Notes under the pieces: model-generated
What the model was told of the DNA's origin: nothing
Database searches by the model: none
What the model saw: only the letters and a program-made list of their open reading frames with translations
In this document: in pieces, positions 1,433 to 63,160 of the stretch
Layout of the letters: every line of letters starts with the position of its first letter
Numbering within the stretch: position 1 is the stretch's first letter
Made by a program: the position numbers and the translations under genes
Assembly: GCF_004010195.1 (NCBI RefSeq)
Contig: NC_057754.1
Location: 1,458,709 to 1,522,708 of the forward strand
From: Chiloscyllium plagiosum
Lineage: Eukaryota
Direction: 5' to 3'
Length of the DNA stretch: 64,000 bases

Positions 1433-2392
1433 TGTGGATGTGCTGGACTGGGTTGGATAAAGGGTAAAAAAAATCACCAGGTTATAGCCAATAGGTTTAA
1501 TTGGAAGCACTAGCTTTCGGAGTGCCGCTCCTTTATCAGGTTGTTGTGGAAGACAGAATTTATAGCAAAAGTTTACGTGTGATGTAACTGAAATTATACA
1601 TTGAAAAATACCGTGATTGTTTGTGGAGTCTCTCATCTGTTCAAATACCATGATAGTTTCACTTCTATCGTAAGTAAATCACAAAACTTTTTTTCCCCCT
1701 TAAAAAAGTTACATTCTCAGGTTAACTGTAACAATTGGTGTCAGCCAGATAAAATGTTGAAAGCGTTAGCCCACTTTTTAGATTAGAATCAGTCTAACCA
1801 TTATGGCACAGAGAACACAGGGGGCTCACACCTTCAACATCTTATCTGGCTGACACCAATTGTTAGTTCACCTGAGAATTTAACATATAGAAAAAAAGTT
1901 TTGTGATTTACATATGAAAGAAGTGAAACTATCATGGTCATTCTAACAGATGAGAGAGCTGAAAATGTGTTGCTGGAAAAGCCTTCTTCAGGCTTATCCC
2001 CAAAACGTCGATTCTCCTGTTCCCTGGATGCTGCCTGACCTGCTGCGCTTTTCCAGCAACACATTTTCAGCTCTGATCTCCAGCATCTGCAGACCTCACT
2101 TTCTCCTAACAGATGAGAGACTCAGCAAAGAATCAAGGTATTTTTCAATGTATACATCACACTGTAAACTTTTGCTATAAATTCTGTGTCTTACAATCAT
2201 GTCCTCCACAACCACCTGATGAAGGAGCGGTGCTCCGAAAGCTAGTGCTTCCAATTAAACCTGTTGGACTGTAACCTGGTGTTATGTACACCCCAGTCCA
2301 ACACCTGCATCTCCAAATCAGGTTTATTTGCAAACACTAGCTTTTGGAGTGCTGCTCCTTCATCAGGCCTGGTGTTGTGTGGTTTTTAACCT
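1433..2392. mobile_element. Fold-back family A element (~300-bp inverted arms) with nested family B hairpin element at 1958-2105
   Basis: 1466-1771 is inverse-complementary to 1823-2285; nested insert flanked by 15-bp TSD CTAACAGATGAGAGA (1943-1957, 2106-2120). Confidence 0.82.
2213..2247 (+). ncRNA. Minimal type I hammerhead ribozyme motif (family A)
   Basis: cac-CTGATGA-A-GGAGC-ggt-GCTCC-GAAA-GC-TA-gtg, palindromic AGCT; related copies at ~1508-1541(-), 2336-2367(-), 24230-24262(-), 24287-24320(+), 36507-36541(+). Confidence 0.75.
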
Positions 2393-5030
2393 CGAGGGAG
2401 GGAGTTTCAGGATTTTGACCCAGCCACACTGAAAGAACAGTGATATATTTCCAAGTCAGGAACTTGCAGGGGGTGGTGTATGATATTCTCATTGAGTGAA
2501 AAATTCCCAAATTCTATGTCTCCACCCTTTTCTTTTCACAAAAAGTACGTAACAAAGTTCATTTCCTTTCCTGGCCCAGCAGAGTCATTGCTATGAATAA
2601 GTTTTGTATGAAATCATCTCTCCATCATACACTGTCAGGAATGTTTCACAATGCAGACGTCACATCATGTGTATCATCGATTGCACAACCTGCCTCAGAG
2701 GTGTCGAGAATCTCTCTAAGGCAAACTTTCCTAGTGCAAACCTATCACATTCCTTTAAACTTGAATTTTGCTCAACTGAATAGCCAGCAGCTTCCACATC
2801 CACTTATCACTAGAGTGCTACTACCTGGGAGGACAAGGGCACCATATATATGGGAACACCATCCTTGGCAAGTAGCCTTCTGGGCTGCAAATGGTCCTGA
2901 CCCAGAAGTATAATTGGTCATTCCAATCATGCCTCTAGGTCAAATTTCTGGAGCTCCCTCTCTAACAACATTGAGGGTGTCTTTACAATCCCAAGGATTA
3001 ATGGTTCAAGGTAGCAGCTCACCAGCTCTTTCTCCAGGTAATTTGGGAGATGGACAGTATATGTTGTGCCTGGCCAGCACCACATGTGAAGAATGGATAG
3101 AAATAAAAGCTTCTGGGCCTTTAAACCCTGGCATTGGACTTTAGCCTAGAGCCTCTGGCTCAAATGCAGGGACAATACCACTACACTACATGACTTTCCA
3201 AGTTCTGTTCTAATGCTCATTAGACTCAATGGTTAACTTAATATGAAGGAAATATGCTACTGACTCAGTGTATCTGTACAAAAGCATTTCCTTTTTTTGT
3301 GCATCTCTCCCCAAAAGTCAATTGTGAATATTTGCCAAGTTGGTCTCCTGCCTCTTCAATTAGTCATGGAGTAGTCAACCTTTTACATTGTGACACTACG
3401 CCATTTCTTGGCGTTTGCCCACACAGCAAACCTGTTACAGATACTTATTTGTGAGCAGTAGGCAGAAGCTTGGACCTTTGGTGACATACTGCTCAGGTCT
3501 GGGATTTCCCCACCGATAGGTGGATATTTTGATAGTGCACCATTGGAAAAGGGGTTTCCCCATGAAATGGTTACAACCATATGCGCACTGTTACTTCAGG
3601 GCACCTGACAAGCTCTGTTGAAAGAATCAGTGGCATTACATTGGTGGCAGCTGTAACCAAACAGGTCGTATAGAACCAAAAAGCTCTAGGGCCAACACAC
3701 ACTCCTGAATGTTGCAGATGCTGCTTTTTGGCAGCATATTGAACCAATGACCCCACCCTACCTTCTGAAGTGGTAACAAGATCCTGTAATACATGTAAAA
3801 ATTCTCCCTCAGTGTCCTGGCCAATATTTAACACAATCAATGCCACAAAGCCTGGTTATCTGCTGGTATCTATGATCTCGGCAACATTCAATTCAGGATG
3901 CTGGATGAACTGGAGATCCACAGCTGCTGTCTTTCTAGGTCAAGCCACACGAGAAAACCCTTGCAATTTGCTGCAATGTATCTTACAACTTTGCAGCCAC
4001 AAAATACCAGTGGCAGGACTGACGGGTTCAAGGCAACATATGAGTTGTCAACCAAGCAGCCTGCTTTATCATTGAGCAACTCGCCTTGACAATAGTTCCT
4101 ATCCTGACAACTTTAGAATCAACAGTGACCCCTGAAGGATGTTGCCGGTATTTCATTTACACAATTCTTAAACAGTAGGTACAGTTTCATTTATCCTGTG
4201 CTTGGAGTAAGGTTTCTGGAAGATAGCATCTAGAATATTCACCTTATTAAAAAGAACAAGGAACCCAATTCACACCAATTGAGATCACACTGTCTCTTGT
4301 GGATTCAGCTGTTTGGCTAAGTTTAAAGAAAAACAGGAACAAGGGAGATGAAGTATCACCAGCTGCAATGTTGATACATCCTTCCTAAATCTGATTTGGA
4401 AGGAGTTAAAAAATTCAGATGGAGTTCCCCTTAGATATAGGAAGTGTGAGCATTTCAAAATATTCAATTAAGCATGAAAGTCCTACAACTCAAATTCACC
4501 TCCACTCATTTAAAAGGACAGAGAGTCCATTCTCTTTTGTATCCTGATGTCCAAACTCACTTCCAAGCTTTGAAAGAATGATCACAAGGTAAAATCTTAA
4601 GGTATCTATGGGAAAGAGCTCAGGAAAACCACCATCTTTAGAAGGCGAGAAAACATTTTGGGGAACACAAAATGCCCAAATATTTCAAAACTAGAATATT
4701 ACGATCAGTAGATGATCTGAACACAGTTCCCATTTTAGGCAGATGGAGGCAAGCAATGGTGAATAAAAACCCCAACAAAATGGTAGTTGTGTACAATTAG
4801 AACTTGCTGGTTACCCAAGCAGCTGCATGTGAGAAATGGTGTTAAAGTACAGGCACTGTGAAAATTCAGAGAAAGGGAGAGACCATACAGTCAAAAAGAC
4901 AACCAAATGATGTAGAGGATTACACAAAACATGCCACACATTACATATATGAATACATTATGTCTGTAAATTGTAAAATGTACAGCAAACAGAACAAGAC
5001 AAGAGGTGCGCAGATAATTGGATACAACAC

Positions 5031-5273
5031 TTTAATGCAACTCTTCACATGCAATAAACTGCAAAATCTGAAAACCCCTTCATCTCTACATTTACTGCAA
5101 GGTTATAACAGCAGAGATGCACCTTTCATATTGTCATTTTAAAAACAAAAAATAAAATTACAGAAGTGCACAGGCTATAGGTTTGCACCAAGATTGCGCT
5201 AAATATCATTAGATCACAAAATAATCAGATGTCACAAATAAAAACAAATGTGAGATGCTGTACACTTTTTATT
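5031..5273 (-). terminator. Candidate STIP1 polyadenylation signals: AATAAA (5268-5273) and ATTAAA (5031-5036)
   Basis: Hexamers ~115 and ~350 nt past the stop, each followed by U/GU-rich sequence on the minus strand. Confidence 0.5.
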
Positions 5274-5386
5274 TTGGCTGCTTTAATTGTGTCTTTTTCC
5301 TCCTGTTTCCCTCCCTCCCTTAAATCCCCAGAGGGCTTTTTCCTGTCAGACTGTCCTAGCTTCATCTCTGCTGAAATCTTGAGTCA

Positions 5387-38125
<32,739 letters not shown>

Positions 38126-38153
38126 CAGCAGTTCGACCAGCTCACCATGCGCC

Positions 38154-38193
38154 TTCTCGAACTTACCAGAACTCGCGCCGGAAGTCCCGCCCC
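38154..38193. promoter_or_regulatory. STIP1 proximal promoter: heat-shock element TTCtcGAActTACcaGAA, ETS site CCGGAAGT, GC box
   Basis: Four alternating nGAAn units (one mismatch) at 38154-38171; CCGGAAGT 38178-38185; CCCGCCCC 38186-38193; fits an HSF1-inducible co-chaperone. Confidence 0.75.
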
Positions 38194-38237
38194 CACCTCC
38201 TGCATGCTCCCAGTGGCTGCTGGCCTGGACGCTCTCC

Positions 38238-38765
38238 CTTTCGATTGGTGCAACCGTCGGTCCATCCGCGGATGGCGTCCCCGCCCCTACACTTCGCATT
38301 AGCCCGGACCATCCGCTTCCTCCTTTCTGATTAGTCCACCCTGTAGTCCATCGTCGGAATGGTTCCCGCCTCCAATTCTTATTCGTCAGGGCTTCACTTT
38401 CCATTAGTCCAATTGCCCGTCTATCATCCGGTGGTTGACCCATCCCCGCCTTCGGGGTCACGACCGTCACAATTTTCACATTCAATTGGCTCACAGACCA
38501 ATCCATCAACCGAAGTCCATCCCGCCTCCAAACCGTCGCACACCATTGGACCGCCCCCTAGATATCCCATTTCGATTGGTTAGCCTCCCGTCAATTACTC
38601 GACATTCCCGCCCATGCCCGTGCTCCCGCTCGTTCATTGGCCGAATATGGGCAGTAGGGCTGTCAACCAGGACGATATGGCCAATTGGAAGAACGGCCCC
38701 GCCCTAATCCGGCTCACTCGAGTCCACGGGTCGGCCTGACTTTACCAAGGGAACATTCCAGAGCA
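38238..38765. promoter_or_regulatory. STIP1 CpG-island upstream promoter with repeated CCAAT and GC boxes and a second HSE-like site (GAAcaTTCcaGAG, 38751-38763)
   Basis: High CpG density; multiple ATTGG/CCAAT and CCCGCC motifs. Confidence 0.7.
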
Positions 38766-39067
38766 CAGCTGTACCAGACAGTTTACTTTAAGGGTCTTCG
38801 TAAACAACTTGCTAACAGGATTGAAATGGAATGTGTTACGTGACTATTAAGATGTTGAGAAGCATATTAGGTGGAACATGCCCTGTGTATTGCAAATTAT
38901 ATAATTAATGTTTTAACTCAGTTTTTTGTATGGTGTTTATTTTTAAAAATGAATAAAGGATATTTCTGGAAATAAATAATACTAACACCCCCACAACTAA
39001 TTTCTAATTCTGTACTTGACAGGATGTGCAAATTTTAAAATGCTTACAAAGCAAATCAGAACTTTGA

Positions 39068-39392
39068 TTCATTGAATCCCTACTGTAAGGAAGCAGGCCA
39101 TTCAGCCCATACTGACCCCACCAGGACCCACATCCCCCCCCCCTCCCATACCCTGCAACCCTGAATATTCCATGGTTAATTCATCCCTGGACACTATGAA
39201 TTATTTAGCATGGCCAATCCACCTAACCTGCACCACTTTGGACTGTGGGAGGAAACTGGAGCACCTGGAGGAAATCCACGTAGACACAGGGAGAACGTGC
39301 AAACTCCACACAGACAATCGCCCGAGGCTGGAATCAAACCCTGGTCCTTCGTGCTGTGAGACAGTAATGTTAACCACTAAGCCACCATGACA
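39068..39392 (-). mobile_element. HE1-like SINE
   Basis: Reverse complement of the same SINE consensus. Confidence 0.82.
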
Positions 39393-40349
39393 CCTAATTT
39401 GATTTGAAAATTGCAGAATATGCAATACAATTCAACCTGCCTTTGCAGGACATATCCAACTGATATGATTGTAACCATCGTAACATTCACACACACATTC
39501 CATGTCGGATCTTAGGCCCCCCAGCAGTTGTGGGCGAAAATGATCAAAAGACTGGAATAGGACAGAAAAGATAGAGAAGGGTGTCAGGGTTGGAGAAGGT
39601 TATCAAATTTATTACTCATTCTGATAAAGGGTCACTGGACTGATTGTTAACTCTGCTTTCTCTCCATAGATGCTGCCAGATCTGCTGAGTTTCTCCAGCG
39701 ATTTCTGTTTTTGTTTCAGACCGTTGACCCTGTTGTGCTTTAATTAAGCTCAAGGTTGCTGTTCATACCATCTTCAAATCCTTCCTAAAGTATATTCACA
39801 GTTCATTTTATTTTGAAACCATCAAAGCTTCAACATGTCCTGTGGGAGAGAGTTCCACATGCTCACCACACTGAGTATAGAATTTGCCCTGATTTCCCCT
39901 TTGGATTTATTCATAGTTTTGGATTCTCCGACATGTGTAAAAATTTCCTCCACTGCCTATTACCTGCTTCTCCTTTTCTTCTTGCCTCATTTTTAAAATT
40001 TTATTTTTAGAATTCAAAGCCCTGAAAATAATCCCTTTTGAGGAGACTGATTGACTCCTTAGCTGGCTCACGGTAAAGTTCTTAAATTGTCTTCTAGGCT
40101 CCTGTGAATCACTTCAGGGAACATTTTACAATATTTAGGGATGCTCAATGAATGTAAAGTTGTGGTGCAGGCAGGTGGACTTTCATCTGAAAATGAAGAA
40201 TGTGCAGGGTTATGGCAGAAGAAGCCAAGTGTTCTTTTGCAAATTGTTCTTTTGTAAGCCAGTGCAGAAATGATGTGGCGAATTGTCTCCTGTGTGTTAA
40301 TTAAACTGTGACACAAAATAAGTGTAAGACAAGTTGCAAGAGGGATACA

Positions 40350-41130
40350 AACAATTTTCAGAGTAACATTGATAGATTAAATAAATGAGCAAAAAAATAG
40401 GCAAATTGAGTATTATGTGGGAAAATGTGAAGTTGTTCAGTTTGGAAGGCAGAACAAAAGGACAGTATTGTTTAAATGGAGAAAAATTACAGAAAGCAGC
40501 AATCTAAAGAGACTTAGGTGTACTCATGCACGAAACACAAAAAACTAGCACACAGGGGCAGCAGGTAATCTGGAAGACTAATGGAATGCCGTCCCATAGT
40601 ACAAGAGTAGGGAAGTTTTACTGTTACAGTACAAGTTGCTTGGCAAGATCACATTTTGGTCTCTGGTGTTATTCATTGGAGGCAGTTCACAGAAGGCTCA
40701 CTAAGGATGATTCCTGGTATGGGGAGAGATTGTCTTATGACCAAAGACTAATCAGTTTGGGACTGGGGTTTAGAAGAATGAGCGGTGACCTTATTTGAAA
40801 CATAGGTAATTCTTAAGGGCCTTGACAGTGTAAGTGTGGAGAGGATGTTTCTCCTCATGGAAGAGTCTAGGACCAGGCGGCATAGTTTTAGAATAACAGG
40901 ACACCAATTTAAGACTTCATTTAGGAGGATTGCCACAGAGAGCTGTATGGGCAGAGTCCTTGTGCATATTAATACTGAGATATATAGATTCTAGATCATT
41001 GGGGAAATAAAGGGTGAGGGGGAAAGGTCAGCAAAATGGATGTGAAGAAGGTTGGATCAGCCACAATCCTATTGAATAGCAGAGCAGGTTCAAGAGGCCA
41101 AATTGACTAGTTCTGATCCTATATCTGTAT
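40350..41130 (+). mobile_element. Old CR1 3' relic between the STIP1 and MACROD1 promoters
   Basis: Decayed NVGKCEV...RDLGV...RMSGDL. Confidence 0.7.
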
Positions 41131-41250
41131 TCTTAATTGCAAGCTTTGATTATAGCAGATCTCCTGAACATTGGGTCCATGATACTCTTGTGCCTATGGG
41201 ACAGTGGCACGCATCGAAACATAGTTCATAAACAGAACCAAAAGCAGGTA

Positions 41251-41466
41251 ACTACAAATCCCAGAGGGCAATGCTACATGATGCCGTATGCCGCGATTCT
41301 GCTTTCCGATTGGCTCGGGCAGACAGGGAACTACAAATCCCAGAGGGTGATGCTCCACGTAAAGTTCTTCCTCAATTGATTGTTCGGGGCTGGCAGAGGA
41401 ACTACAAATCCCAGAGGGCGCTGCTCCCGACCGCCCCCCCCGATTCGCCCGAGTGGTCACGTGACC
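41251..41466 (+). promoter_or_regulatory. MACROD1 promoter: three ACTACAAATCCCAGAGGG (ZNF143/THAP11-type) motifs, CCAAT box, palindromic E-box GGTCACGTGACC
   Basis: Identical 18-mers at 41251, 41330, 41401; GATTGG near 41308; E-box 41455-41466; CpG island continues through exon 1. Confidence 0.75.
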
Positions 41467-41625
41467 GGGAAGAGCTTGCTTTTCGTGAGTCACCCCTGTC
41501 ACCCAAAATAAAATCCCACCCCGTCCCAAAAAAAAGCCCAAAAACCATTGCAGCGACCTTGACAGTGCCGTCAACCATCGAGTGCAGAGAAGCGGTAAAG
41601 GTTGAGTGGAGGGGGAAGCGAAGCG

Positions 41626-41893
41626 ATGGAGAAGGTGCTCGCCGGGTTGAGGCGGGGCCGCTTTCCTTGGAGCTGGGGGCCGTTTCGCGCGCTGCCCGTT
41701 TCGAACGTTTTTCAAATCCAACGGCCCCAACGGTCGCTGGCCGGCGGCGACGGCCCCGCGCCTGCGCGGTGGTCGCTGCGCGCCGGCCGCCGGCTCCCCT
41801 GCTCACAACCGCTGTCGTCCGCCCGCCTTTCAGGGATGTCCCGAGAGGAGTTTAACCCCTCCCGGCCCACCACCGACTGGAAAGTGGCGAAAA
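41626..41893 (+). CDS. MACROD1: MACROD1 (mono-ADP-ribose hydrolase) exon 1 with Arg-rich mitochondrial-presequence-like N-terminus
   Basis: MEKVLAGLRRGRF...MSREEFNPSRPTTDWKVAK + A|gtaagt. TDWKxAK matches recalled human MACROD1 (STDWKEAK). Head-to-head with STIP1 as in human. Confidence 0.85.
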
Positions 41894-42582
41894 GTAAGTA
41901 CCCACCGCCCCCCACCACCCCATCCTTTTTAACCACCGAACTTCCGAGCCAAGTAGTGCATTTAGCCATCGCACCTGCTGACAATAAAAGAGAGAGATTC
42001 CTCACCTCAGGAGGGCACATTCAAATCTTGCCAAATTCGAGAGGGAACAACAATTTACACTAGAGCAGTGGAAACAAAAGCAGGCACTATGATTGATTTG
42101 ATAAGTGGCCGGTTACAAACAATGCACCAAGTTCAAGAAGAAGGGTCACCGGACTTGAAAGGTTGGCACTTTCTCTCTCCACAGCCTCACCTGAGAGTTT
42201 CTGCCACAATTTCTGTTTTTGCATCAAAGAACTACTGTCCTCCACAGTTTCACTTTGTCCGGGTAAGGTGCGACTCCTGAACTGGCCCTTTTTGTCCACA
42301 GGCGAAGGATGTGAGTACATAAAAGTCAGCAAGCTGGAAGGGCAATCTTGGTTGACAGCGCATTTGGGATTGTACAACAATTGCTGTCCCATTAGAATAG
42401 AATATCTTTCACTGTCTCACTATAGTCGTTTCTGAAATCTTTTCCAATAACGATCGGATGATCATTTTAACTTGCTCTGGATTTTATTTCAAAATAGATG
42501 GTTGTTTGAAAAAAATGTTATTGGAGTTCGTAGAGAGCAACCTGTTGCAATGGTAAGTTAAAGTGTGCACTTTGCTCACTTT

Positions 42583-43080
42583 CCACAGAATCCCTACAGT
42601 GTGGGAACAGTCTAATCGGTCCAACAAGACCACACCGATCTTCCGAAGATCGTGCCACCCAGGCTCAATCCAACCTTATAATCTTGTATTTTAGCAAGTT
42701 TTGAGAAAATTTGTATCTCCGGTTGAGGTTCTGGATGTAGGTTTGCTTGCTGAGCTGGAAGGTTTATTTTCAGATGTTTTGTCATCATACTAGGTAACAT
42801 CTTCAGTGAGCGTCCGGATGGAGCTCAGTGAGCAAACCTACGTCCAGTCTTGCATTTTCCATGGCTAACACTCCAAACGTCCCCCCTGAACACCTTTGGC
42901 AACTTATCATGGCCAATCCACCTAACTTGCACATCTGTTACCATGGGAGGAAGCTGGAGCACCCGATGGAAACCCACACAAGCATGGGGAGAATCTGCAA
43001 ACTCACACACACACACGTGGAATTGAACCCCGGGACCCTGACGCTGTAAGGCAGCTGTGTGAATCACTGACTCACCCATG
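42583..43080 (-). mobile_element. HE1-like SINE split by a Penelope pLTR fragment (~42689-42825)
   Basis: SINE head 42830-43080, tail 42583-42680; intervening piece matches 44655-44785. Confidence 0.75.
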
Positions 43081-45958
43081 TTTCCCTAGTTTTCCTTAAA
43101 CAAAATACTCATTCACTGAGTTCTTTTCATGTTAATAGTTTGTTTAGCTTTTTCTCACTCTGAGAGATGACATTTATTGCTGTGAGTGTGCATGCTCCTG
43201 GTAGTCAACAGGCACAGCTTCTAGTTTTGTTTTTGAGAACTTTATCACAATAGCATTCTCAGTTACAATTGACAAAACCTGGCTCGGGCGAATGCACAGT
43301 TTGATTTTTTTTCTTCCTGATTATAACTGCAGAGAAGGCAGTATCCTGTTACCAAGTGCTCTTTTATTTACTTGTGCACAGTACTGTGGCTGTGGCCAGT
43401 CAGCTTGGAGTCAGTCCCCTGAACTGAGGAGATTCTAAATCCCTGTTAATTTTATAAAACTTTTATCAAATGGTACAAAATACAAACAGTTAACAATACA
43501 TAATAAACAGCAGTTTACAAGTAACAGCGATTTACACTGCACAACCAGTGCACAGGGAAGTCAGGACGAACCTCAAAAAAGGAAATAGTAAACGCAAACA
43601 CATACAAAACAGTCCAATAAACTGAACAGTAAAACAGTGTATACATCACACCCACCCCTGGCAACCTGACAAATCACCTGTCCCTCCCACCTTCCAGCCA
43701 CAAGTCAGTCCATACCAATGCACCACCCAGCCTATGGACTGCCCCGATGCACCTTCTGGCCACCTCTATGACAGCCCATCCCTATACCTCCCTGGGACAA
43801 AGGCACTCAGGCAGCCCACACGTCTTTTGGTCCTTGACATGGCCCTATGCACCTTCTGGCTCTCAGTCTGTCCTAATACACCTTCTGGTCACCTCTAGGC
43901 AAGTCCAGCCTGCCCCTTTCTTGGGGCAATGGTGCTCAGGGGAGCCTACGCACCCTCCGGTTTTCAGGGATACCAGCATCAGGCTGGCCTACTCACCTTC
44001 CTGTATACGGGATGGCCAGCCCAACCTCTCAGGGAGACAGTTTTCAGGAGGACCCGTGAGCCTCCCTGCTCACACGAAGGCCTGCCAGACCTAGGGACAC
44101 ACGAGACAGTGCCGGTGATAAAATCAAACAGCGTGACGGCAGAGTGCACACCTCACAGCAGAGTCCATATCTGACGGCAGAGTCCACTCCAGCATGTAGC
44201 AAATGCTCACTCACAGCACATGCACAGATGTTCAGTATTTACAGAGGCCTGGTCCACCCACAGAGGGCTAGGCCTACTCACAGAAGAACGGTTCACTTGA
44301 TAAGGTGCAGTTGACTGACAAAGGCTCAGTCCAACCACCAAAAAAACATGATAAGCCAGAGTGTAAGGGCTAAGCCCTGCCACAAAACCAGTGTAGTCCT
44401 TTCTCAAAATAAACCAATAAAAAAGGAGTAGCACACAGGCTGCAACAGTTCCCTAGTGAAAACTGATATACAGCAGTTATACATTGACTGTGAAGATCAG
44501 TCTGCTCAGAAATCTGGTACCCCAGCTAGCTCAGAGTCAGTCCCCTGAACTGGGGAGATTCTAAATTTCCTGTTCATATTTTTTTGTTTTTTTTAAAATC
44601 AGTCCTCAATAAAAAGGAATACCAGTTAACAAACTGCCTATATAATTCAGCCAATGAGTTTTGAGAAAGATTTGTAGCTCAGGTTGAGGTTCTGGATGTA
44701 GGTTTGCTCGCTGAGCTGGAAAGTTTGTTTACAGATGTTTTGTCACCATACTAGGTAATTTCATCAGTGAGCCTCCAGATAAAGCACTGATGGTATGTCC
44801 TTCTTTCTACTTATGTGTTTAGGTTTCCTTGGGTTGGTGATGTCATTTCCTGTGGTGACATCGTTTCCTGTGATTGTCATTTCCTGTCCTTTTTCTCAGC
44901 GGGTGGTAAATGGGATCCAAGTCAATGTGTTGTTGATAGAGTTCTGGTTGGAATGCCATGCTTCTGAGAGTTCGAGTGTGTGTCTCTGTTTGGCTTGTCT
45001 TAGGATGGATGTGTCGTCTCAGTCAAAGTGATGTCCTTCCTCATCTGTATGTAAGGATACTAATGAGAGTGGGTCATGTCTCTTTGTGGCTAGTTGATGT
45101 TCATGTATCCTGGTGGCTAGTTTTCTGCCTGTGTCTGGCCAAGGAAACACTGATTACACTATTAGAAGAATCAAAGACACAGACACCAAACATCACCAAC
45201 TTCATCTGCAAGAACAGTATCGTCAAGCTAGTGGACCTATGCCTTACCACACTTCACCTTCAACAACAAAACCTACAGACAAACCAATCGAACACCCATG
45301 GGATCTCCGATATCGGGGTTCTTAGCAGAGGCAGTAATGCAGAGACCCAAACAAACAGCTCTGCCACCAATCCAACCCAAACTTTGGGTCCGCTACGTGG
45401 ATGACACCTTTGTCATCACTAAATGAAACAAATTAGAGGAAACCTTCAAGACCGTCAATAATACCCTTACTTGCGTAAAATTCACTAAAAAAGAGGAAAA
45501 CAACAACAAACTGTCATTCCTAGATGTCGCAGTAGAGCGAATAGCCAATGGGGAACTTCAAACCAGCGTCTACAGGAGAACAACACATACAAGCCAAATA
45601 CTGAACTATAGAAGTAATCATCCCAACATCCACAAACGAAGCTACATTACAACATGATTTCAACGAGCCACCACACATTGCAGCACAGAGGAACTACGAA
45701 GAGCAGAGGAAAATCACCTATACTGTGTATTTTTAAAAAAAACAGGTTCCCAATGAACATAGGCTGCCGATTTCTCAGCAACAAGCCCCGTCCAGAAACC
45801 CTCGCCACTCTCCCGTACATCAAAAGACAGCTTGGAAATGACTGAGACTATTCAGACCTCTTGGCATCATGGTAGGCCACAAACCCACCAACACACTAAA
45901 ACAGCAGCTTATGAACTTGCAAGACTCTGTACAGACAACAAGCAAAACTAATATCATA

Positions 45959-46042
45959 GCGTGTGGGACACGGGGAGCGGGGGGGGACTGTGTGGGACAC
46001 GGGGAGCGGGCAGCGTGTGGGACGCAGGGAGCGGGGACTGTG
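45959..46042 (+). repeat. GC-rich minisatellite (~3 x TGTGGGACACGGGGAGCGGG)
   Basis: Three degenerate tandem units directly upstream of the ZDHHC24 acceptor region. Confidence 0.8.
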
Positions 46043-46112
46043 AGTGTGCTGCTCGGTGATGTCTCTGGTGTTGTGTTTCCCCCCCCACCCCCCCCTCCCT
46101 GCCCCGGGGCAG

Positions 46113-46420
46113 GCCAGGTGAGCCTCTCCGTGTTTTGGTTTGCCTTTGTCGCCGATACCTGCGTGGTTGGCTTCCTGTTTGTGTCGGCCTTCCTCCTGTT
46201 CCACCTGCAGCTCCTGTGGCGTGGACAGACCACCCGCGAGTGGAGCACTGGGCGCCACAGTGTCTACAACCTGGGCTGGCGTCGGAATGTGGAGGAGCTC
46301 CTGGGCAGCCGCTGGTACCTGACCTGGATGTGCCCCCTGGTACCCTCCTCGCTTCCCGGAGACGGTGTGACCTTCCAGATGAGGGAGCTGCCTGCCCACA
46401 AACCCGTCAACTTCTTCTGA
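46113..46420 (+). pseudogene. ZDHHC24: Isolated terminal coding exon of palmitoyltransferase ZDHHC24 (TM4, TTxE, C-terminal motif), ORF intact; upstream DHHC exons not seen
   Basis: C-rich tract + cag|GC CAG GTG: QVSLSVFWFAFVADTCVVGFLFVSAFLLFHLQLLWRGQTTREW...YNLGWRRN...LGSRWYLTWMCPLVPSSLPGDGVTFQ, matching recalled human RVSLAQFALAFVTDTCV...RGQTTWEW...PLPGDGITFQ. Confidence 0.85.
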
Positions 46421-46614
46421 CCCACACCGGCCCATCACCTCTGTGGGTAAGCAGGGGGTGGGGTAACTGGGACTCGGAGACAGGTTGGCACCAGCTCAGC
46501 AGGGGGTCACAGAGCTCAAAGGGACGGGAAGTCTTCGAATTCAAGGACATATCCTCTTCCTCCGTTTGAATAATAGACTCCCTGCAGTGTGGAAACAGGT
46601 CCTCAGCCCCATGG

Positions 46615-46998
46615 GAAGGTCCTGGGGAGTGTTGCTGAACAAAGAGACCTTGGAGTGCGGGGTCATAGCTCCTTGAAAGTGGAGTCGCAGGTAGATAGGA
46701 TAGTGAAGGAGGCGTTTGGTATGGTTTCCGTTATTGGTCAGAGTATTGAGTACAGGAGTTGGGAGGTCATGTTGCGGCTGTACAGGACATTGGTTAGACC
46801 ACTGTTGGAATATTGTGTGCAATTCTGGTCTCCTTCCTATCGGAAAGATGTTGTGAAACTTGAAAGGGTTCAGAAAAGATATACAAGGATGTTGCCAGGG
46901 TTGGAGGGTCTGAGCTACAGGGAGAGGCTGAACAGGCTGGGGTTGTTTTCCCTGGAGCGTCGGAGGCTGAGGGGTGACCTTATAGAGGTTTATAAAAT
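46615..46998 (+). mobile_element. Well-preserved CR1 RT C-terminal fragment within the ZDHHC24 insert
   Basis: Open frame EQRDLGV...IEYRSWEVMLRLYRTLVRPLLEYCVQFWSP...RRLRGDLIEVYK. Confidence 0.9.
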
Positions 46999-47035
46999 GG
47001 ATGTAGGTTTGCTCACTGAGCTGGAAGGTTCACTT

Positions 47036-47075
47036 CCAGACGTTTCGTCACCCTACTGGCTAACATCCTCAGTGG
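47036..47075 (-). ncRNA. Minimal type I hammerhead ribozyme motif (family C, Penelope pLTR)
   Basis: cca-CTGAGGA-T-GTTAGCC-agta-GGGTGAC-GAAA-CG-TC-tgg; degenerate copies at ~47833-47872(+), ~44730-44770(-), ~42770-42810(-). Confidence 0.72.
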
Positions 47076-48339
47076 GCCTCAGGGCAAAGCACTGCTGATA
47101 ATTCCTGCTTTCTATTTATAGGTTTGGGTTTCTTTGGGCTGGTGATGTCATTTCCTGTGGCAGCCCAGAGGAACTACGAAGAGCAGAGGAAAATCACCTG
47201 TACTGTGTATTTAAAAACAAACAGGTTCCCAATGAACATAGGCTGCCGATTTCTCAGCAACAAACCCCGTCCAGAAACCCTCGCCACTCTCCCGTACATC
47301 AAAAGACAGCTTGGAAATGACTGAGACTATTCAGACCTCTTGGCATCATGGTAGGCCACAAACCCACCAACACACTAAAACAGCAGCTTATGAACTTGCA
47401 AGACTCTGTACAGACAACAAGCAAAACTAATATCATTTACAAAATACCTTGCAAGAACTGTAACAAACACTACATTGGACAAACAGGCAGAAAACTAGCC
47501 ACCAGGATACATGAACATCAATTAGCCACAAAAAAAATGACCCACTCCCACTAGTATCCTTTACATACAGATGAGGAAGGACACCACTTTGACTGGGACA
47601 ACACATTGCCTCCTAGGATAAGCCAAACAGAGACACACAAGAATGCCTAGAAGCATGGCACTCCAACCGGAACTCTGTCAACAACACATTGACTGACTTG
47701 GATCCCATTTAACCACCCCCTGAGAAAAAGAACAGGAAATGACATCACCACAGGAAATGGCATCACCAACCCAAGGAAACCTAAACACATAAGTAGAAAA
47801 CGGGCCATACCACTAGTGCTTCATCCGGAGGCTCACTGATGATATTACCTAGTATTGTGACGAAATGTCTGAAAATGAACCTTCCAGTTCAGCGAGCAAA
47901 CCTACATCCATAATTCAGCCAGTTTAGAAATCAGGTTCCCCAACAAAACAGAAACCAGCAGCAGTACACACTGGATGTGGGCAGCCAGCTCGGATTCAGT
48001 CCCCTGAACCGAGGAGATTCTAAATCCCCTGTTAATTTTTTTTAAAAATCCTGACTTTTTTATTAAACAGTACAAAACACAGTTAACAATAAACTGAAAG
48101 CAGCAATTCACAAAAAACCCCACTGTTTACAGGGGGAAAAGGGCAGCAAAGCCAAACCCCAAAGCCCACTGTTCAGCCAGTTTTCAGGGGGATGAGGACA
48201 AACCTCAAATCCCAGTTTCATTTATCACAAAGATAACATTAACCAACAGACAAGGCAGTGCACTTAAATGAGAAACTGTGCATACAACACAGACCCAAAT
48301 AGCTATAAAAAAGGACACCCGACACCCGTGCACACCACA

Positions 48340-49250
48340 TACTGATCCGACTATCCTTGGCTAGCCTTACTGCAAGACAGTCGTTGACCTACTGGTCTTT
48401 GGCCTCCCTGCGTACTGACCAACCCTCCCCAGACCCACTTTCCTCCAGGCTGGTTGTCAACCACCCAGCTCCCAGTCGCGCCATCTACTGATTGGACTAC
48501 CCTGGGCCGCTTTCCTAAGAGCTGGCTGTCGGCCTTCTGGTCTCTGGCCACCCTGCGTACTGGCCGATCCTTCCCAAGCCTGCTTTCCTCCAGGCTGGTC
48601 GTCGACTACCCTGCTCCCAGTTGCCCCGTATACTGATCGAACTACCCGGGCCGCTTTCCCATGAGCTGGCTGTCAGCCTTCTGGTCTCTGGTCGCCCTGT
48701 CTACTGACTGACCCTCCCCAGCATTCTTTCCTCTGGTTGTCGGCCACTGGCTGCTTTCCTACCGTCAGGCTGTTGGCTTTCCAGCACCCTGCTACCTCAT
48801 GTATTGACCCTTTCTGCTGACCAGCTTTCCTACTGTCCAGCTTTCCTACGGACCAGCTCCAGCCTCCCCGTATATTGATCTGTCCTCCATCAGTCGGCCT
48901 TCCTACAGGCTGCCGTTGGTTGCCTGGCTCAGCCTCCCTATGTACTGACTGGCCTGCCCTATACAGGCTTTCCTGGGGGGATGCTATTAGTTGCCTGGCC
49001 CTACCTGCCCTGCATACTGCTAAGCTCCTCCTGGCCTCCTTTCCTCCAGTCTGGTCATTGACCCTCCCACCCCCAGCCAGTCTGTGTACTGGCTGCCCCT
49101 CCCCTGACTAGCTTTCCTATGGGAATACTTTCGGTTGCCTGGTCCCTAGCGATCCTGCATTCTAATAGACACCCCAGCCCGCTTTCCCACAAGGCCGGCC
49201 ATTGATTCTCCAGCTTGTATGTTTTGGCTATCCCACTCTGGCCTGCACTC
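48340..49250. repeat. Degenerate C/T-rich minisatellite
   Basis: Recurrent CCCTGCGTACTG / GCTTTCCT...GGCTG units. Confidence 0.65.
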
Positions 49251-49974
49251 AAAACCAATTAATTTAAAACTCACCTGCTGTAACAGAATTCAAAATCCTC
49301 ACAATACAGTTTCCAGTACGAAGCCAGAGTCCACACCCGAAGGCTAGGATGCAGCAAATGCTCACCTCCCAGCACACAGACCGGTGTTCAGTCTTCATAG
49401 AGGCATGGCCCATCCATAGAGAACCAGGCCCACTCACAGGAACACAGTAGTGTAAAGGTGCAGTTATCTCAGAGGGGTTTGGTCCACTCCCGAACTCCAG
49501 AATGCAGCAATTGCTTACCTCCCAGCACACACACAGGTGTTCAGTCTTTACAGAGGCCGAGTCACCGACAAAGTGCCAGGCCTACACATACAGGAACAGC
49601 TCATCTGGAAAGATGCGGATGCATGACCTGTCCTAACTGCCAATCTTCCTTTCCACCTCTCCGCTCCACCCTCCTCTCTCTGACCTATCACCTTCATCCC
49701 AACTTCTATCCATCTATTGTACTCTTGGCTACCTTCTCCCCAGCCCCACCCCCCTCCCATTTATCTCTCCACCCCAGAGGCTCCCTGCCTTCATTCCTGA
49801 TGAAGGGCTTTTGCCTGCAACATCGATTTTCCTGCTCCTCGGATGCTGCCTGACCTGCTGTGCTTTTCCAGCATCACTCTAATCTAGACAAAATTGACAT
49901 TGTCCTTTTCTCAAAGTAATAGAGAAAAGAGTAACACACAGGCTGTAACCAGCCAGTGAAACAACAGTTCCCTT

Positions 49975-54869: not shown

Positions 54870-56490
54870 GAAAATCTGAAACAAAAACAGAAATTGCTGG
54901 CGAAACTCAGCAGGTCTGGCAGCATCTGTGAGAAGAAAGCAGAATTAACATTTAGACTCCGGTGACTTTTCATTAGAATTGATAGCAAAAAAAGTGGAGG
55001 AGGGGAGAGGTGACTGGATAGGTGGAGATGGTGCCCTGAAAGAGAGATCCATGGAGGGCAGACCAGGACAGTAAAGAAGCTGAAATGTGATAATGAAAAC
55101 TGAGGGTAGGAGAGAATGGGAAGTCTGTGATGAATGCAAACTATTAATTCAGTTTAGGATACCTGGTCGACATGGATAAGTTGGGACGAAGGGTCTGTTT
55201 CCGTGCTGTATGACTCTCTGTAATGTGATAATTTACCTGAGAGTAGGTGAAAATCGATTGTGCTAAAAACGTCCCAAGTCATAACAGGACTGGATGTGGG
55301 GTGGGTAAAAAATATAGAAGGATAGAATCTGCCTCTAAAGTTACTGAGCTCGATGTTGAGTCCCTGAGGCTTCAGGCTCCCGAAATGGAAAATAAGATGC
55401 TTTTCTTCAAGCTTACGCTGAGACTTGCTGGAATACTGCAGCAGACCTGCAGCAGAAATGTTGGCGTGGGAACATGGTGGTGTGTTGAAGTTGCAGGTGA
55501 CTGGAAGCTCTGGGTCATTTTTACAGAGAGAATGTAGGTGTTTTTCATCCAGTCTGTATTTCATCTCCCCAATGTAGAGGAGACCATACTAAGAGCAGCG
55601 AATACAGTAGATGAGATTGAATGAAGTACAGAAAAATTGCTGCACATCTGTCCAGGATCTTGGATAGTGAGGAGGTAAATGGGCAGAGTTACACCTTCTG
55701 TGATTGCATGGTAAGGTACTGTGGGGATATGTGGAGGTCTTGGGAATGGAGGAGGAGTAGATCTACGAAGCTCAGGAGAGACCAGTCCCTACAGAATGTT
55801 GACAGAGGAGTGGGGTGGAATACATGTCTGCCATCTTTTTGGCATAGAAAAGGTAGCTTACAGTCCTTTGGATGTAGAGGTTGGTGAACTGGTGAGTGAG
55901 GACATTGATGTGGGAGGGAAGAGATGGGTGAGGGCAGAAGTGTGGGAGATGCTAAAGGGCTTGTTGATGACCACTGAGTCGGGAATCCCTGGTTGATAAT
56001 AAAGGTGGACATTTCTGAGGCCCTTCGAGGAAGGTGGCAACAGGTGTGCTGGAGATGTAGAAACTTGGAGAATGGGATGAAGTCCTTACAGGAAGCAGGG
56101 TGTGTCAAGGTAACTGTGGGAGTTGGTTGATTTGTAATGGATATTAGTCATCCACGTATCCCCGGAAATTGAAATAGAGATGTTGAGGAAGGGAAGGGAG
56201 AAGTTGGAGTTGGACCGGGTGAAGGTGAGAGCAGGTTGGAAATTGGAAATGAAATTGATAAATGTTTCCAGTTCAGAACATGAGAGGTAAGCAGCACCAA
56301 CAATGTCATTGATATACTGGAGAAAGAGTTGTGGAAAGGGGTCCAAGTATGATTGGAACAAGGAATATTCCACACACTCCACATAGCTGGGGTTCATGCA
56401 ATTACCCATGACTATACTTTTGACCTGAAAAAAGTGAGAGGAGTTGAAGGAAAAGTTGTTCAACATGAGGATTAGCTTGGCAGGGAGATC
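54870..56490 (-). mobile_element. Penelope-like (Neptune-type) element, RT + GIY-YIG relics, with a small CR1 tail inserted ~55145-55220
   Basis: ORFs 56086..56466 (NNFSFNSSHFFQVKSIVMG, FLQYINDI, PFLNI) and 55154..55564 (RKLEEKHLIFHFGSLKPQGLNIE). Confidence 0.85.
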
Positions 56491-56549
56491 GATCTCCTGT
56501 AATATCTATAGCTAGAAGCATAGAAAACACTTCCACCACCATAGTTGTC

Positions 56550-60899: not shown

Positions 60900-63160
60900 A
60901 CATTTGGAGTAGTCAGCATAGCTTTAAGCAAGAGAGACCATGCCTCACAAATTTGTTAAGTGTTCTTTGATGAAGTGACCATGAAGGTTGACGAGGGCAC
61001 GGCAGTAGATGTGGTCGGTATGGATTTCAGCAAGGCCTTTGATAAGGTTCCACATGGTAGGCTGCTCTGGAAGGTTAGATTGTGTGGAAACCATGGGGGG
61101 CTGGCAAGTTGGATACACAGTTGGTTTGATGGTAGGAAGCAGAAGGAAATATTGGAAGGATGCTTGTTGGACTGGAAGCCTGTGACTTGTGGAATGCCTC
61201 CGGGTTTGGCGCTGGGTCCATTTCTGTTTATCTATATCAATCTCTGATTTGGATGAGAATGTATAAAGCATGATTAGTAAGTCTGCTGATGACACTAAAA
61301 TAGGTGGTATTGTGGACCGTGAAGAAGGTTATCAGAAATCACAGTAGGACCTTGATCAGCTGGGGAAGTGGGTCGAGAATTGGCAAATAGAATTGCATTT
61401 TGAGAAGTCAAATCAAGGCAGGAGTTCCATGGTGAATGGTAGGGCCTTAAGGAGTGTAGTGGAACAGAGGACAGCACGTTGGCTCAGTGGTTAGCACTAC
61501 TGCCTCATAGCACCAGGGACCCGAATTCGATTCAAACTGCGGGCAACTGTCTGTGTGGAGTTTGCACATTCTCCCTGTGTTTGCATGGGTTTCTTCCAGG
61601 TGCTCCTGATTCGTCCCGCAATTCAAAGCTGCGCAGTTTAGGTGAATTACCCGTAGTGTTCAAGAATGTGCAGACTAGGTGGTTGAGTCAGGGGGAAGTG
61701 TAGAGTAACAGGGTAGGGTAATGGGTCTGAGTGGGTTACTTTTTGGAAGGTCAGTGTGGACTTGTTGGGCCAAATGGCCCATTTCCACAATGTAGAGATT
61801 CTATGAGAGGGACCTTGGAGTTCAGGTGCACAGTTCTCTGAAAGTGGAGTCACAGGTAGACAGGGCAGTGAAGAAGGTTTTTGACACTGACCTTCATCAG
61901 CCAGGGCATTGGGTATTGAAACTGGGAAGTTATGTTGCGGTTGGACAGGATGTTGGTGAGGCTGCACTTGGAGTATTGTGTTCAGTTTTGGTCACCTTGC
62001 TCTAGGAAGGATGTTTGTTAATCTGGAAAGAGTGCAGAAGAACTGTACAAGAATGTTACCAGGACTCAAGAGTCGAGTTGTAGGGAGAGATTGGACAAGG
62101 TTGGGGTGGCATGGTGGCTCAGTGATTAGCACCGCTGCCTCATAGTTCCAGGGACCCAGGTTTGATCCCAGCCTCGGGCTACTGTCTGTGTGGAGTTTGT
62201 GCAAACTCCGTGTCTGCGTGGGTTTCCTCTGGATGCTCCTATTTCCCCTCACAATGCAAAGATGCGCAGATTAGATGAATTGGCCATGCTAAATTGCCCA
62301 TATCGTTCAGGGATGTGTAGGTTAGGTGCAGTATTCAGGGGTAAATGTAGAGTTATAGGGTAGGGGAATGGGTCTGGGTGGGTTACTCATTGGAGGGTCA
62401 GTGTGAACTTGCTGGGCTGAATGGCCTGTTTCCACATTGTTGGGATTCTATCGTCCTAAGCTAGGACTTCTCTTTAGAGTGTAGAGTCTGAGGGATGGAT
62501 CTTATAGAAGTGTCTAAAATCATGAGAAGCATAGATAGCGTGAATGCATTCAGTCTTTTTCCCATGGTTGGGGAATTGAGGACTAGAGGGCATCAGTTTA
62601 AGGTTAGAGGGAAAGAATAAAAGGGAACCTGAGGGACAATTTTTTTTATACAGAGGGTGGGATGCATATGAATGAGCAGCCAGTGGAAGTGATTGAGGCA
62701 TGTACATTAATAATATTTAAAAGGCATTTGGACAGGTTTAGAAGGATTTGGGTGGCACAGTAGCTCAATGATTAGCACTGCCGCCTCACAGCGAAAGGGA
62801 CCATGGTTCAATTCCTGCCTCTGGCAACTGTCTGTGTGGAGTTTGCACATTCTCCCTGTGTCTGTGTGGGTTTCCTCCCACAGTCCAAAGATGTACAGGT
62901 TGTTAATTGGCCATGCTGAATTGCCCATAGTGTTCAGGAATGTGTAGGTTAGGTGCAGTAGTCATGGGTAAATGTAGAGTAATGTGGAATGGGTTTGGTG
63001 GGTTGGTGTGAACTTGCTGGGCTAAATGGCCCGTTTCCACACTATAGGGATTATATGATTCGAAGTGCAGAGAAATGGGGTTAGCATAGATGGACATTTT
63101 GGTTGACATAGATCTTTTGGCCCAAACTGATCCGTCTCTGTGCTGTAGGACTTTGTAACT
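60900..63160 (+). mobile_element. CR1 LINE 3' half with three nested HE1-like SINEs (~61472-61806, 62105-62452, 62751-63061)
   Basis: RT FFDEVT...VDVVGMDFSKAFDKVPHGRL; SINE heads GGCTCAGTG(G/A)TTAGCAC. Confidence 0.88.

Follow-up and report, generated by a model that had tools for sequence, protein, structure and literature searches.

The hammerhead motifs scattered through the window, i.e. the entire 64-kb stretch of shark DNA analysed here, are very probably minimal, dimer-type hammerheads carried in the pseudo-LTRs (pLTRs) of Penelope-like elements (PLEs) that bear an endonuclease (EN+) and belong to at least three lineages, and the copies in the window are most likely inert. These motifs are the already described minimal PLE hammerheads, residing mostly in broken insertion stubs. 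Through them a known RNA class comes to include three or four PLE lineages of shark, and they indicate neither a new ribozyme nor a host function. A preliminary description had assigned them to the minimal type I hammerheads of PLE pLTRs, an identity that protein remnants in the window bear out for the families designated C and B/B2, and that for family A is drawn from architecture.

Motif detection and core conservation

A strict descriptor of the minimal hammerhead (CTGANGA-N-stem II of at least 4 bp-GAAANNTH, with a helix I of at least 3 bp) matched the window five times, with C3 at 2216+, 22604+, 35354-, 36510+, and 47072-, versus one match in total across 40 dinucleotide shuffles of the same DNA. 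With one core mismatch tolerated, the window yielded seven matches versus a mean of 0.25 in the shuffles. Chance resemblance to a short, degenerate pattern might be suspected from the bare core pattern, which matches 18 times in all, unrelated places included, from the seven Rfam matches at E values up to 5, none of which is to a hammerhead family, and from the unremarkable folding z-scores of the four best copies (-1.11 to +0.58). Yet the shuffle control refutes a chance origin, which is left with a negligible probability, and all five strict matches lie within PLE-type ends. The hammerhead motifs of the window are real.

A fuller census of the window recovered 23 remnants: seven of family A, eight of B, four of a related type designated B2, and four of C. 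The complete 11-base core persists in six of these, and four keep the core, the palindrome, the G10.1-C11.1 pair, and helix I together. The copies at 32651 and 39620, originally placed in family B, belong to the fourth type, B2, along with those at 42134+ and 54976-. All 13 coordinates named in the preliminary description fall in or beside hammerhead-derived motifs, and the predicted cut positions that it gave, 2244(+), 22631(+), and 47039(-), agree with the descriptor scan. Several copies that it had listed without a decay label are nonetheless broken: 24287 carries AGCC and an A10.1 mismatch, 47833 carries ATTA and ATGT, and 44730 and 42770 both carry G12->A and ACAT. The palindrome at 35323 reads ACAT rather than the ACGT claimed, and the unlabelled copy at 36507 has one mismatch in stem II.

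Comparison of the best copy of each family (A, B, C) shows all 11 core positions to be identical, whereas the flanks agree at chance level (5-11 of 40 positions downstream and 7-10 of 30 upstream). Stem II (4-6 bp) and helix I (3-4 bp) differ between the families yet still pair, as had been noted at the outset, with only 0-2 of 3-4 arm bases shared. The palindromic 15.1-16.1 tetramer is AGCT in A and ACGT in B and C. Intramolecular helix III is absent, and canonical hammerheads with a helix III were rejected. An extra base between 9 and 10.1, along with the G10.1-C11.1 pair, is present in 2216+, 36510+, 22604+, and 47072-; the pair gives way to A-U in 35354- and to A-C in 47836+. These features align the motifs with the minimal PLE hammerhead, whose consensus is CUGANGAH-G stem II C-GAAA-palindrome-UH (Cervera and De la Peña 2014, PMC4209133). 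The two share not only this consensus, a short helix I, and the lack of helix III, but also the coexistence in a genome of several families whose stems covary, the predominance of solo copies derived from truncated elements, and the presence of pairs on opposite strands. The accessible rows of Table S1/Fig. S3 in that study include no cartilaginous fish; shark motifs may already be listed in Lünse 2016 (PMC5785218), Repbase, or Dfam.

CpG-type changes are found at 17 of 31 core CpG sites versus 1 of 57 sites at A13, A14, and A15.1, and CpG decay explains much of the core loss. Selection on master lineages would keep the core while the stems drifted; copies, unselected once inserted, would then lose the core rapidly because one or two CpGs lie within it.

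Elements that carry the motifs

The full consensus of family C is found at 47036..47075 (-), with a predicted cut after 47039; its A9, extra base, and G10.1 read ATG and open a frame. A Penelope/Poseidon-type insertion spans 44654..47911, flanked by a 12-bp target duplication (44642-44653, 47910-47921) and composed of two copies. The inverted, 5'-truncated copy, 44660-45135(-), carries a decayed motif (C3 44767) and a tail, while the direct copy carries the reverse transcriptase (RT) at 45129-45957(+) and the GIY-YIG domain, pLTR, and a decayed motif (C3 47836) at 47160-47911(+), placing the motif in a pLTR downstream of the RT-GIY-YIG ORF. An initial Pfam scan of 12 long frames returned no PLE domain; on frames from the window, RVT_1 (E 4.9e-5) and GIY-YIG (E 2.5e-4) were matched, although neither reached the curated cut-off. 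The element is tiled by shark proteins that are 59-86% identical, and a CX2-6CxxC linker precedes GIY-YIG in none of the 10 family C homologues. Family C is shown by these sequence matches to end a Penelope/Poseidon-type element inside the window. A further family C stub at 42699..42846 (C3 42806-, with G12->A and ACAT) bears a tail and a 25-bp inverted piece, and is bounded by an 11-bp target duplication with one mismatch. A putative last exon of ZDHHC24 is also located within the family C element.

The closest described relative is the Poseidon element PAc of the anole Anolis carolinensis (Frangieh 2024, PMC11167929), which family C resembles in carrying an RT followed by a GIY-YIG domain without a Zn linker, a stem II that opens with an ATG, the cut lying ~26-28 bases further on, and two 3' end points ~35 bases apart. 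Unlike PAc, the C copy of the window is broken by stops, frameshifts, and a 1.2-kb foreign segment. In the anole system, in vitro insertion was unaffected by catalytic mutations, and RNA-seq yielded no reads with an end at the cut site (PMC11167929). These observations, the overlap of the family C ATG with A9-G10.1, and the fact that none of three core-less 3' pieces begins at the cut site would fit a motif retained as a promoter, translation start, or protein-binding site that merely looks like a ribozyme. Such a role is improbable, given that three unrelated families have in common all 11 catalytic bases, the two helices, and the palindrome, and that the anole motif cleaved in the presence of protein and showed C3-G8 rescue (PMC11167929).

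Family B is represented by a full consensus at 22600..22635 (+), with a predicted cut after 22631. This copy forms the + arm of a head-to-head mini-insertion at 22507..22729, in which the - arm lacks C3-U4, the tail is on the + arm, the arms are 99% alike, and the target duplication is 14 bp (22495-22508, 22730-22743). A variant at 35323..35358 (-), with a complete 11-base core but A10.1-U11.1 and a broken palindrome, is situated downstream of a GIY-YIG remnant of Neptune type (35570-35935, -); the pyrimidine-rich region upstream of it resembles that preceding another B copy at 49793..49828 (+), which has A13->C and ACAT. The remnant at 12880..13545 joins a Neptune-type endonuclease (13393-12989, -), with the linker CNQIRCKTC at 13363(-), to a decayed B tail; it also includes an inverted, decayed B motif at 13469+ and a 13-bp target duplication with one mismatch. 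Two smaller B insertions are a stub at 1958..2107 that has lost its 5' core, includes a short piece in inverted orientation, and has a target duplication of 15 bp, and a decayed head-to-head pair at 36863..37008, both arms of which begin at stem II, with a 14-bp duplication. For B2, a decayed Neptune-type RT, thumb, and GIY-YIG remnant at 54875..56505 (-) ends in a decayed motif (C3 ~54976), and decayed stubs lie at 32645..32748 (+), 39618..39720 (+), and 42130..42226 (+), the last of which had escaped the preliminary description.

Three B/B2 remnants match RT-GIY-YIG proteins, and the CX2-6CxxC linker is present in 143 of 150 among the matches listed; with the endonuclease remnant at 13 kb as query, a HMMER search gave matches, whereas a word-based search of proteins gave none (22 candidates). 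With the pLTR again downstream of RT-GIY-YIG remnants, the linker and the protein matches show B and B2 to end elements that, as read from sequence, are of Neptune type in a sense that does not separate Neptune from Nematis. EN+ PLEs of the Neptune (or Nematis) group likewise have a CX2-5CxxC linker before a C-terminal GIY-YIG domain, a hammerhead near the 3' end, an inverted 5'-truncated arm, and a tail at one end (Craig 2021, PMC8557442); unlike those full elements, B and B2 are present as remnants only.

Family A has a full consensus at 2213..2247 (+), with a predicted cut after 2244 and with the 1958..2107 B stub nested in its upstream region. Other copies lie at 1508..1542 (-), with G8->A, and at 2335..2369 (-), with G12->A (a CpG change) and a shortened 3' end. 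A head-to-head pair at 24184..24407 (C3 24261- and 24288+) has U16.1->C in both arms, a tail restricted to the + arm, and no clear target duplication. In a second pair, at 36385..36598, the - arm lacks the 5' core and bears the tail, the + arm (36507..36541, +) has an intact core and AGCT apart from its stem II mismatch, and the target duplication is 12 bp with one mismatch. From this architecture, in which the inversion, the tail, and one target duplication fit a PLE, family A probably ends a further Penelope-like family. No coding remnant was detected upstream of family A by tblastn with 167 proteins (best E 0.01), and an exact-pattern scan found no copy in metagenome contigs, prokaryote genomes, or viral contigs, where shark DNA is not expected.

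Architecture of the insertions

Target duplications of 11-15 bp are present at 7 of 13 boundary pairs, and five of the seven scored at least 11, a score reached by 0 of 150 random pairs; at the other six, a convincing duplication was not found. A one-sided tail was read by eye in eight of nine inverted units, and a tail at one end is characteristic of EN+ PLE insertions (Arkhipova 2013, Craig 2021). The hallmarks of such insertions, an inverted 5'-truncated arm, a 30-40-bp tail at one end, and a target duplication, are accordingly found here. According to established work, the RT-GIY-YIG protein nicks DNA and primes reverse transcription just downstream of the hammerhead. Priming takes place at one of two sites there, which accounts for the tail, and since reverse transcription starts at this point, every 5'-truncated copy retains the hammerhead end; such copies are often head-to-head pairs flanked by a target duplication. 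The many short insertions of the window record start and stop points of PLE copying.

The 5' ends of the truncated copies range from -88 to +9 overall, with 14 of 16 copies starting within -20 to +10 of C3, a count that leaves out 7 of the 23 copies, which extend upstream or served as references, and that uses offsets set by eye for 2366- and 22604+ (13 of 16 with the aligner's value for 22604+). A p-value for this clustering is not relied on because the insertion arms are non-independent and the copies were picked for a core remnant. Starts so close to the motif, and the lack of an ORF remnant beside any of the seven A copies, could mean that the A copies, possibly with the B stubs of 90-130 bp, form a separate non-autonomous family, SINE-like or made of retrozyme monomers, that has its own source copies and is mobilised by PLE proteins. 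Animal retrozymes are indeed reported as non-autonomous PLE derivatives, and non-LTR retrozymes with type I hammerheads from PLE pLTRs are described in one chondrichthyan genome (bioRxiv 10.64898/2026.07.22.740005). We consider this origin unlikely: two A copies run ~330 bp or more upstream, coding remnants run on without a break into the B, B2, and C copies, and the 5' ends are spread out rather than fixed. Non-LTR retrozymes are moreover defined in that preprint as tandem repeats in which at least two successive units each bear a hammerhead. In the window, none of the 10 tandem-repeat rows contains a motif, nor is there a close same-strand intact pair, and retrozyme tandem arrays were rejected on this basis. 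Truncated EN+ PLE copies are the preferred source of the stubs.

Cleavage potential and ribozyme load

In a master element, cutting by the motif requires two copies within the same tandem transcript to pair through the 4-base palindrome, either weakly or aided by the element's protein. In the window, no intact copy has an intact partner of the same family and strand within 34 kb. Long hairpins (-203.6 and -127.9 kcal/mol) form between the arms of head-to-head insertions, and two intact copies are buried in them. Activity at these loci is therefore unlikely. The modelled active dimers of A, B, and C (-17.7, -14.3, and -5.3 kcal/mol) compare with best co-folds of -30.0, -19.5, and -30.9 kcal/mol, and in the energy model the active dimer is the lowest-energy state for none of five copies; folding thus lends no support to cleavage, even in young copies. 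The copies of the window are most likely inert leftovers, and the young intact A, B, and C motifs may serve to test dimer and protein-assisted cleavage.

It might be argued that the host has co-opted some of the intact copies to cut or regulate surrounding transcripts, as full consensus is kept in 4 of 23 copies and conserved intronic hammerheads are known in amniotes (PMC6155905). Against this very improbable scenario, the intact copies have the look of recent insertions and not of conserved ones, as the near-identical arms at 22.6 kb attest, two of them are buried in hairpins, all require a partner because they lack helix III, and the intact C copy is antisense to a putative first exon (41626-41893).

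The very large ribozyme load first proposed for this shark holds for motif remnants, at 23 in 64 kb or ~360 per Mb, but not for working ribozymes, because 19 of the 23 are off consensus and no intact partner lies within 34 kb. Intact copies number four in 64 kb, or ~62 per Mb (95% interval 17-160), a density from which the genome average may be overstated, the window having been chosen for its motifs. If the local density held genome-wide, each cell would contain ~10^5 intact solo copies per family with a common palindrome and helix I, which, in different pre-mRNAs, could pair in trans or be folded by the element's protein and cut host transcripts. That prospect is a highly unlikely one; if true, it would entail dose-dependent cuts in host transcripts and make the stubs a genome-wide RNA-cleavage system, kept in check as CpGs in the core decay and inversions form hairpins. 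For comparison, coelacanth is reported to have ~4,000 motifs and Xenopus ~9,000 (Cervera and De la Peña 2014), both of which the density of the window, if genome-wide, would far exceed.

Minimal hammerhead motifs in the window

A strict descriptor of the minimal hammerhead ribozyme (min-HHR) matched five sites, with C3 at 2216+, 22604+, 35354-, 36510+ and 47072-, against a single match in total over 40 dinucleotide-shuffled windows; when one mismatch in the core was permitted, there were 7 matches versus a mean of 0.25 per shuffle. The cuts predicted in the preliminary description, at 2244(+), 22631(+) and 47039(-), were placed at the same positions by this analysis, and every site named there carries hammerhead-derived sequence. 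Profiles made from the window copies yielded a census of 23 remnants, comprising 7 of family A, 8 of B, 4 of B2 (a fourth type related to B) and 4 of C. The 11-base core is complete in 6/23, and four (2216+, 36510+, 22604+ and 47072-) keep core, palindrome, G10.1-C11.1 and helix I together. The preliminary description was largely right, its figure of more than ten copies in 64 kb holding for remnants and being too high for intact motifs.

The best copies of A, B and C share 11/11 core positions, and their flanks are alike only at chance level. Because the families were selected on presence of the core, the informative evidence is the retained pairing and palindrome; stem II and helix I are indeed unlike among these copies, with pairing kept. 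The motifs match feature by feature the 2014 min-HHR consensus (PMC4209133). No hammerhead family was matched in an Rfam search of the window, and folding z-scores of the copies were ordinary. A lone near-match at 34178-34211 (-), with a full 5' core, a 6-bp stem II, GAAATAGT and a helix I of just 1 bp, fits no family profile and is probably a chance occurrence or a very old copy.

Density in this window, which was chosen for its motifs, is about 360 remnants per Mb; for intact motifs it is 62 per Mb (95% interval, 17-160). If that density is typical, the load would far exceed the min-HHR counts of 4,000 in coelacanth and 9,000 in Xenopus reported in PMC4209133. Our literature search found no report of a hammerhead ribozyme in elasmobranchs; retrozymes bearing hammerheads are described from one chondrichthyan genome in a preprint (bioRxiv 10.64898/2026.07.22.740005). 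The motifs of shark Penelope-like elements (PLEs) may lack a detailed listing so far; their type is already known, and the window copies are new members of it.

Penelope-like carriers of families B, B2 and C

The motifs had been attributed to the pseudo-LTRs of PLEs. For family C this is confirmed by a Penelope/Poseidon-type element (44654-47911), recognized by reverse transcriptase (RT) and GIY-YIG frames and by protein matches, which ends in a family C hammerhead. The RT frames (45129-45957, +; Pfam E 4.9e-5) and the GIY-YIG frame (47321-47551, +; E 2.5e-4) both score below the curated cut-off. Ten proteins match the element, the eight named ones being from carpet sharks (63-86% identity), which points to a carpet shark as the probable source of the window; it is tiled by all three homologous proteins tested, and the CX2-6CxxC linker is absent from 10/10 homologues. 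The unit is bounded by a 12-bp target duplication and includes a 5'-truncated copy in inverted orientation (44660-45135). In family C, A9, an extra U and G10.1 form an ATG, from which a frame runs across the tail, the short stretch between two 3' end points downstream of the hammerhead; the Poseidon element of anole is described with the same arrangement (PMC11167929).

The attribution also holds for B and B2, whose motifs or tails follow three Neptune-type endonuclease remnants on the minus strand (13393-12989, 35935-35570 and 55726-55334). RT remnants reaching 56505 precede the third of these. The remnant near 13 kb has 2,155 protein matches at E up to 0.001. The CX2-6CxxC linker, a mark of the Neptune or Nematis clade according to PMC8557442, occurs in 143/150 among the matches listed, and RVT_1 and GIY-YIG are both present in 6 of 14 scanned homologues.

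Family A would, from its insertion architecture, end a further PLE family; no coding remnant of A was found within the window. Two A copies have ~330 bp of non-coding upstream sequence in common. A compound A unit (1440-2385) consists of a long inverted pair with a tail on each arm; upstream of the motif, the two arms are 76-79% alike. A B stub is nested in the unit, a further A copy, its third, faces the 2216 copy tail to tail, and no target duplication was found at it.

Insertion structure, decay and predicted activity

Head-to-head placement is frequent among the copies. Target duplications of 11-15 bp (scores 9-15) occur at 7/13 boundary pairs, compared with scores of at least 11 in 0/150 and at least 9 in 4/150 random control pairs. 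In every family the 3' ends fall at two points, ~35 bases apart, and the longer tail, read by eye, is confined to one arm in 8/9 inverted units; published accounts of endonuclease-bearing PLEs describe arms in inversion, tails on one side and short duplications (Craig 2021, PMC8557442; Arkhipova 2013). Because 14/16 truncated copies (13/16 with the aligner value for one offset) start -20 to +10 bases from C3, and 0/3 core-less 3' pieces start at the cut site, the copied RNA was mostly uncut.

Decay is visible in CpG-type changes, found at 17/31 core CpG sites versus 1/57 positions at A13, A14 and A15.1. Selection would maintain the hammerhead core in master elements, with inserted copies left to decay. 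PMC4209133 reports no cleavage of min-HHRs as monomers and weak cleavage as dimers; for the anole element, PMC11167929 states that cleavage required the element's protein and that insertion in vitro did not need cleavage. In the window, the nearest intact same-family, same-strand partner is 34 kb off (family A); in family C the closest copy on the same strand, at a distance of 2.3 kb, has G12 changed to A. Long hairpins are predicted for RNA across the 22.6-kb and 36.5-kb pairs. For none of the five copies tested was the active dimer the lowest-energy predicted co-fold. Cleavage at these loci is unlikely, and the copies are probably inert there.

A ZDHHC24 exon and other repeats

The family C element is split by a 1.2-kb foreign segment (45958-47159, +), flanked by a near-identical duplication of ~278 bp (45680-45957 and 47160-47436). 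Within it, 155 bp of intron end precede an intact ZDHHC24 last exon (46113-46420; 83% to a catshark protein across 102 aa; GC of the exon part, 65%), a piece of another repeat carries putative LINE-like coding remnants, and an intact family C hammerhead copy lies antisense. No other ZDHHC24 exon is present within the 64-kb window. The segment may represent host DNA captured in connection with a PLE, a templated insertion at the DNA level, or an assembly error. A CpG-island putative first exon (41626-41893, +) has a phase-1 donor (GT at 41894), and the probable acceptor of the stray exon (46113, +) is likewise phase 1, a match expected 1 in 3 times by chance; an in-frame chimeric splice from a predicted start codon is possible on paper. 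Upstream of this first exon, a motif occurring three times at 41249-41418, ACTACAAATCCCAGAGG, presumably resembles the ZNF143/SBS promoter motif.

Elsewhere, a 193-bp inverted repeat (24830-25022 and 25312-25504; 99% complementary, 289-bp spacer), in which core-pattern and descriptor scans found no hammerhead core, appears to stem from an inversion or inverted duplication of very recent date. A 44-bp motif occurs five times on the plus strand (43420, 44546, 48005, 51299 and 53253) at 1.1-3.5 kb spacing, each time adjoining GC-richer, unique-looking sequence, and possibly marks the ends of another retroelement family. An imperfect tandem repeat at 48356-49105 has a 144-145-bp period and a 73-bp sub-period. 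Several copies of a ~300-bp SINE-like repeat, whose head we take to be tRNA-like, lie at 5693-6360, 39180-39400 and 61449-63055; the stretch near 61.4-63.0 kb holds a tandem run of three, spaced ~640 bp apart.
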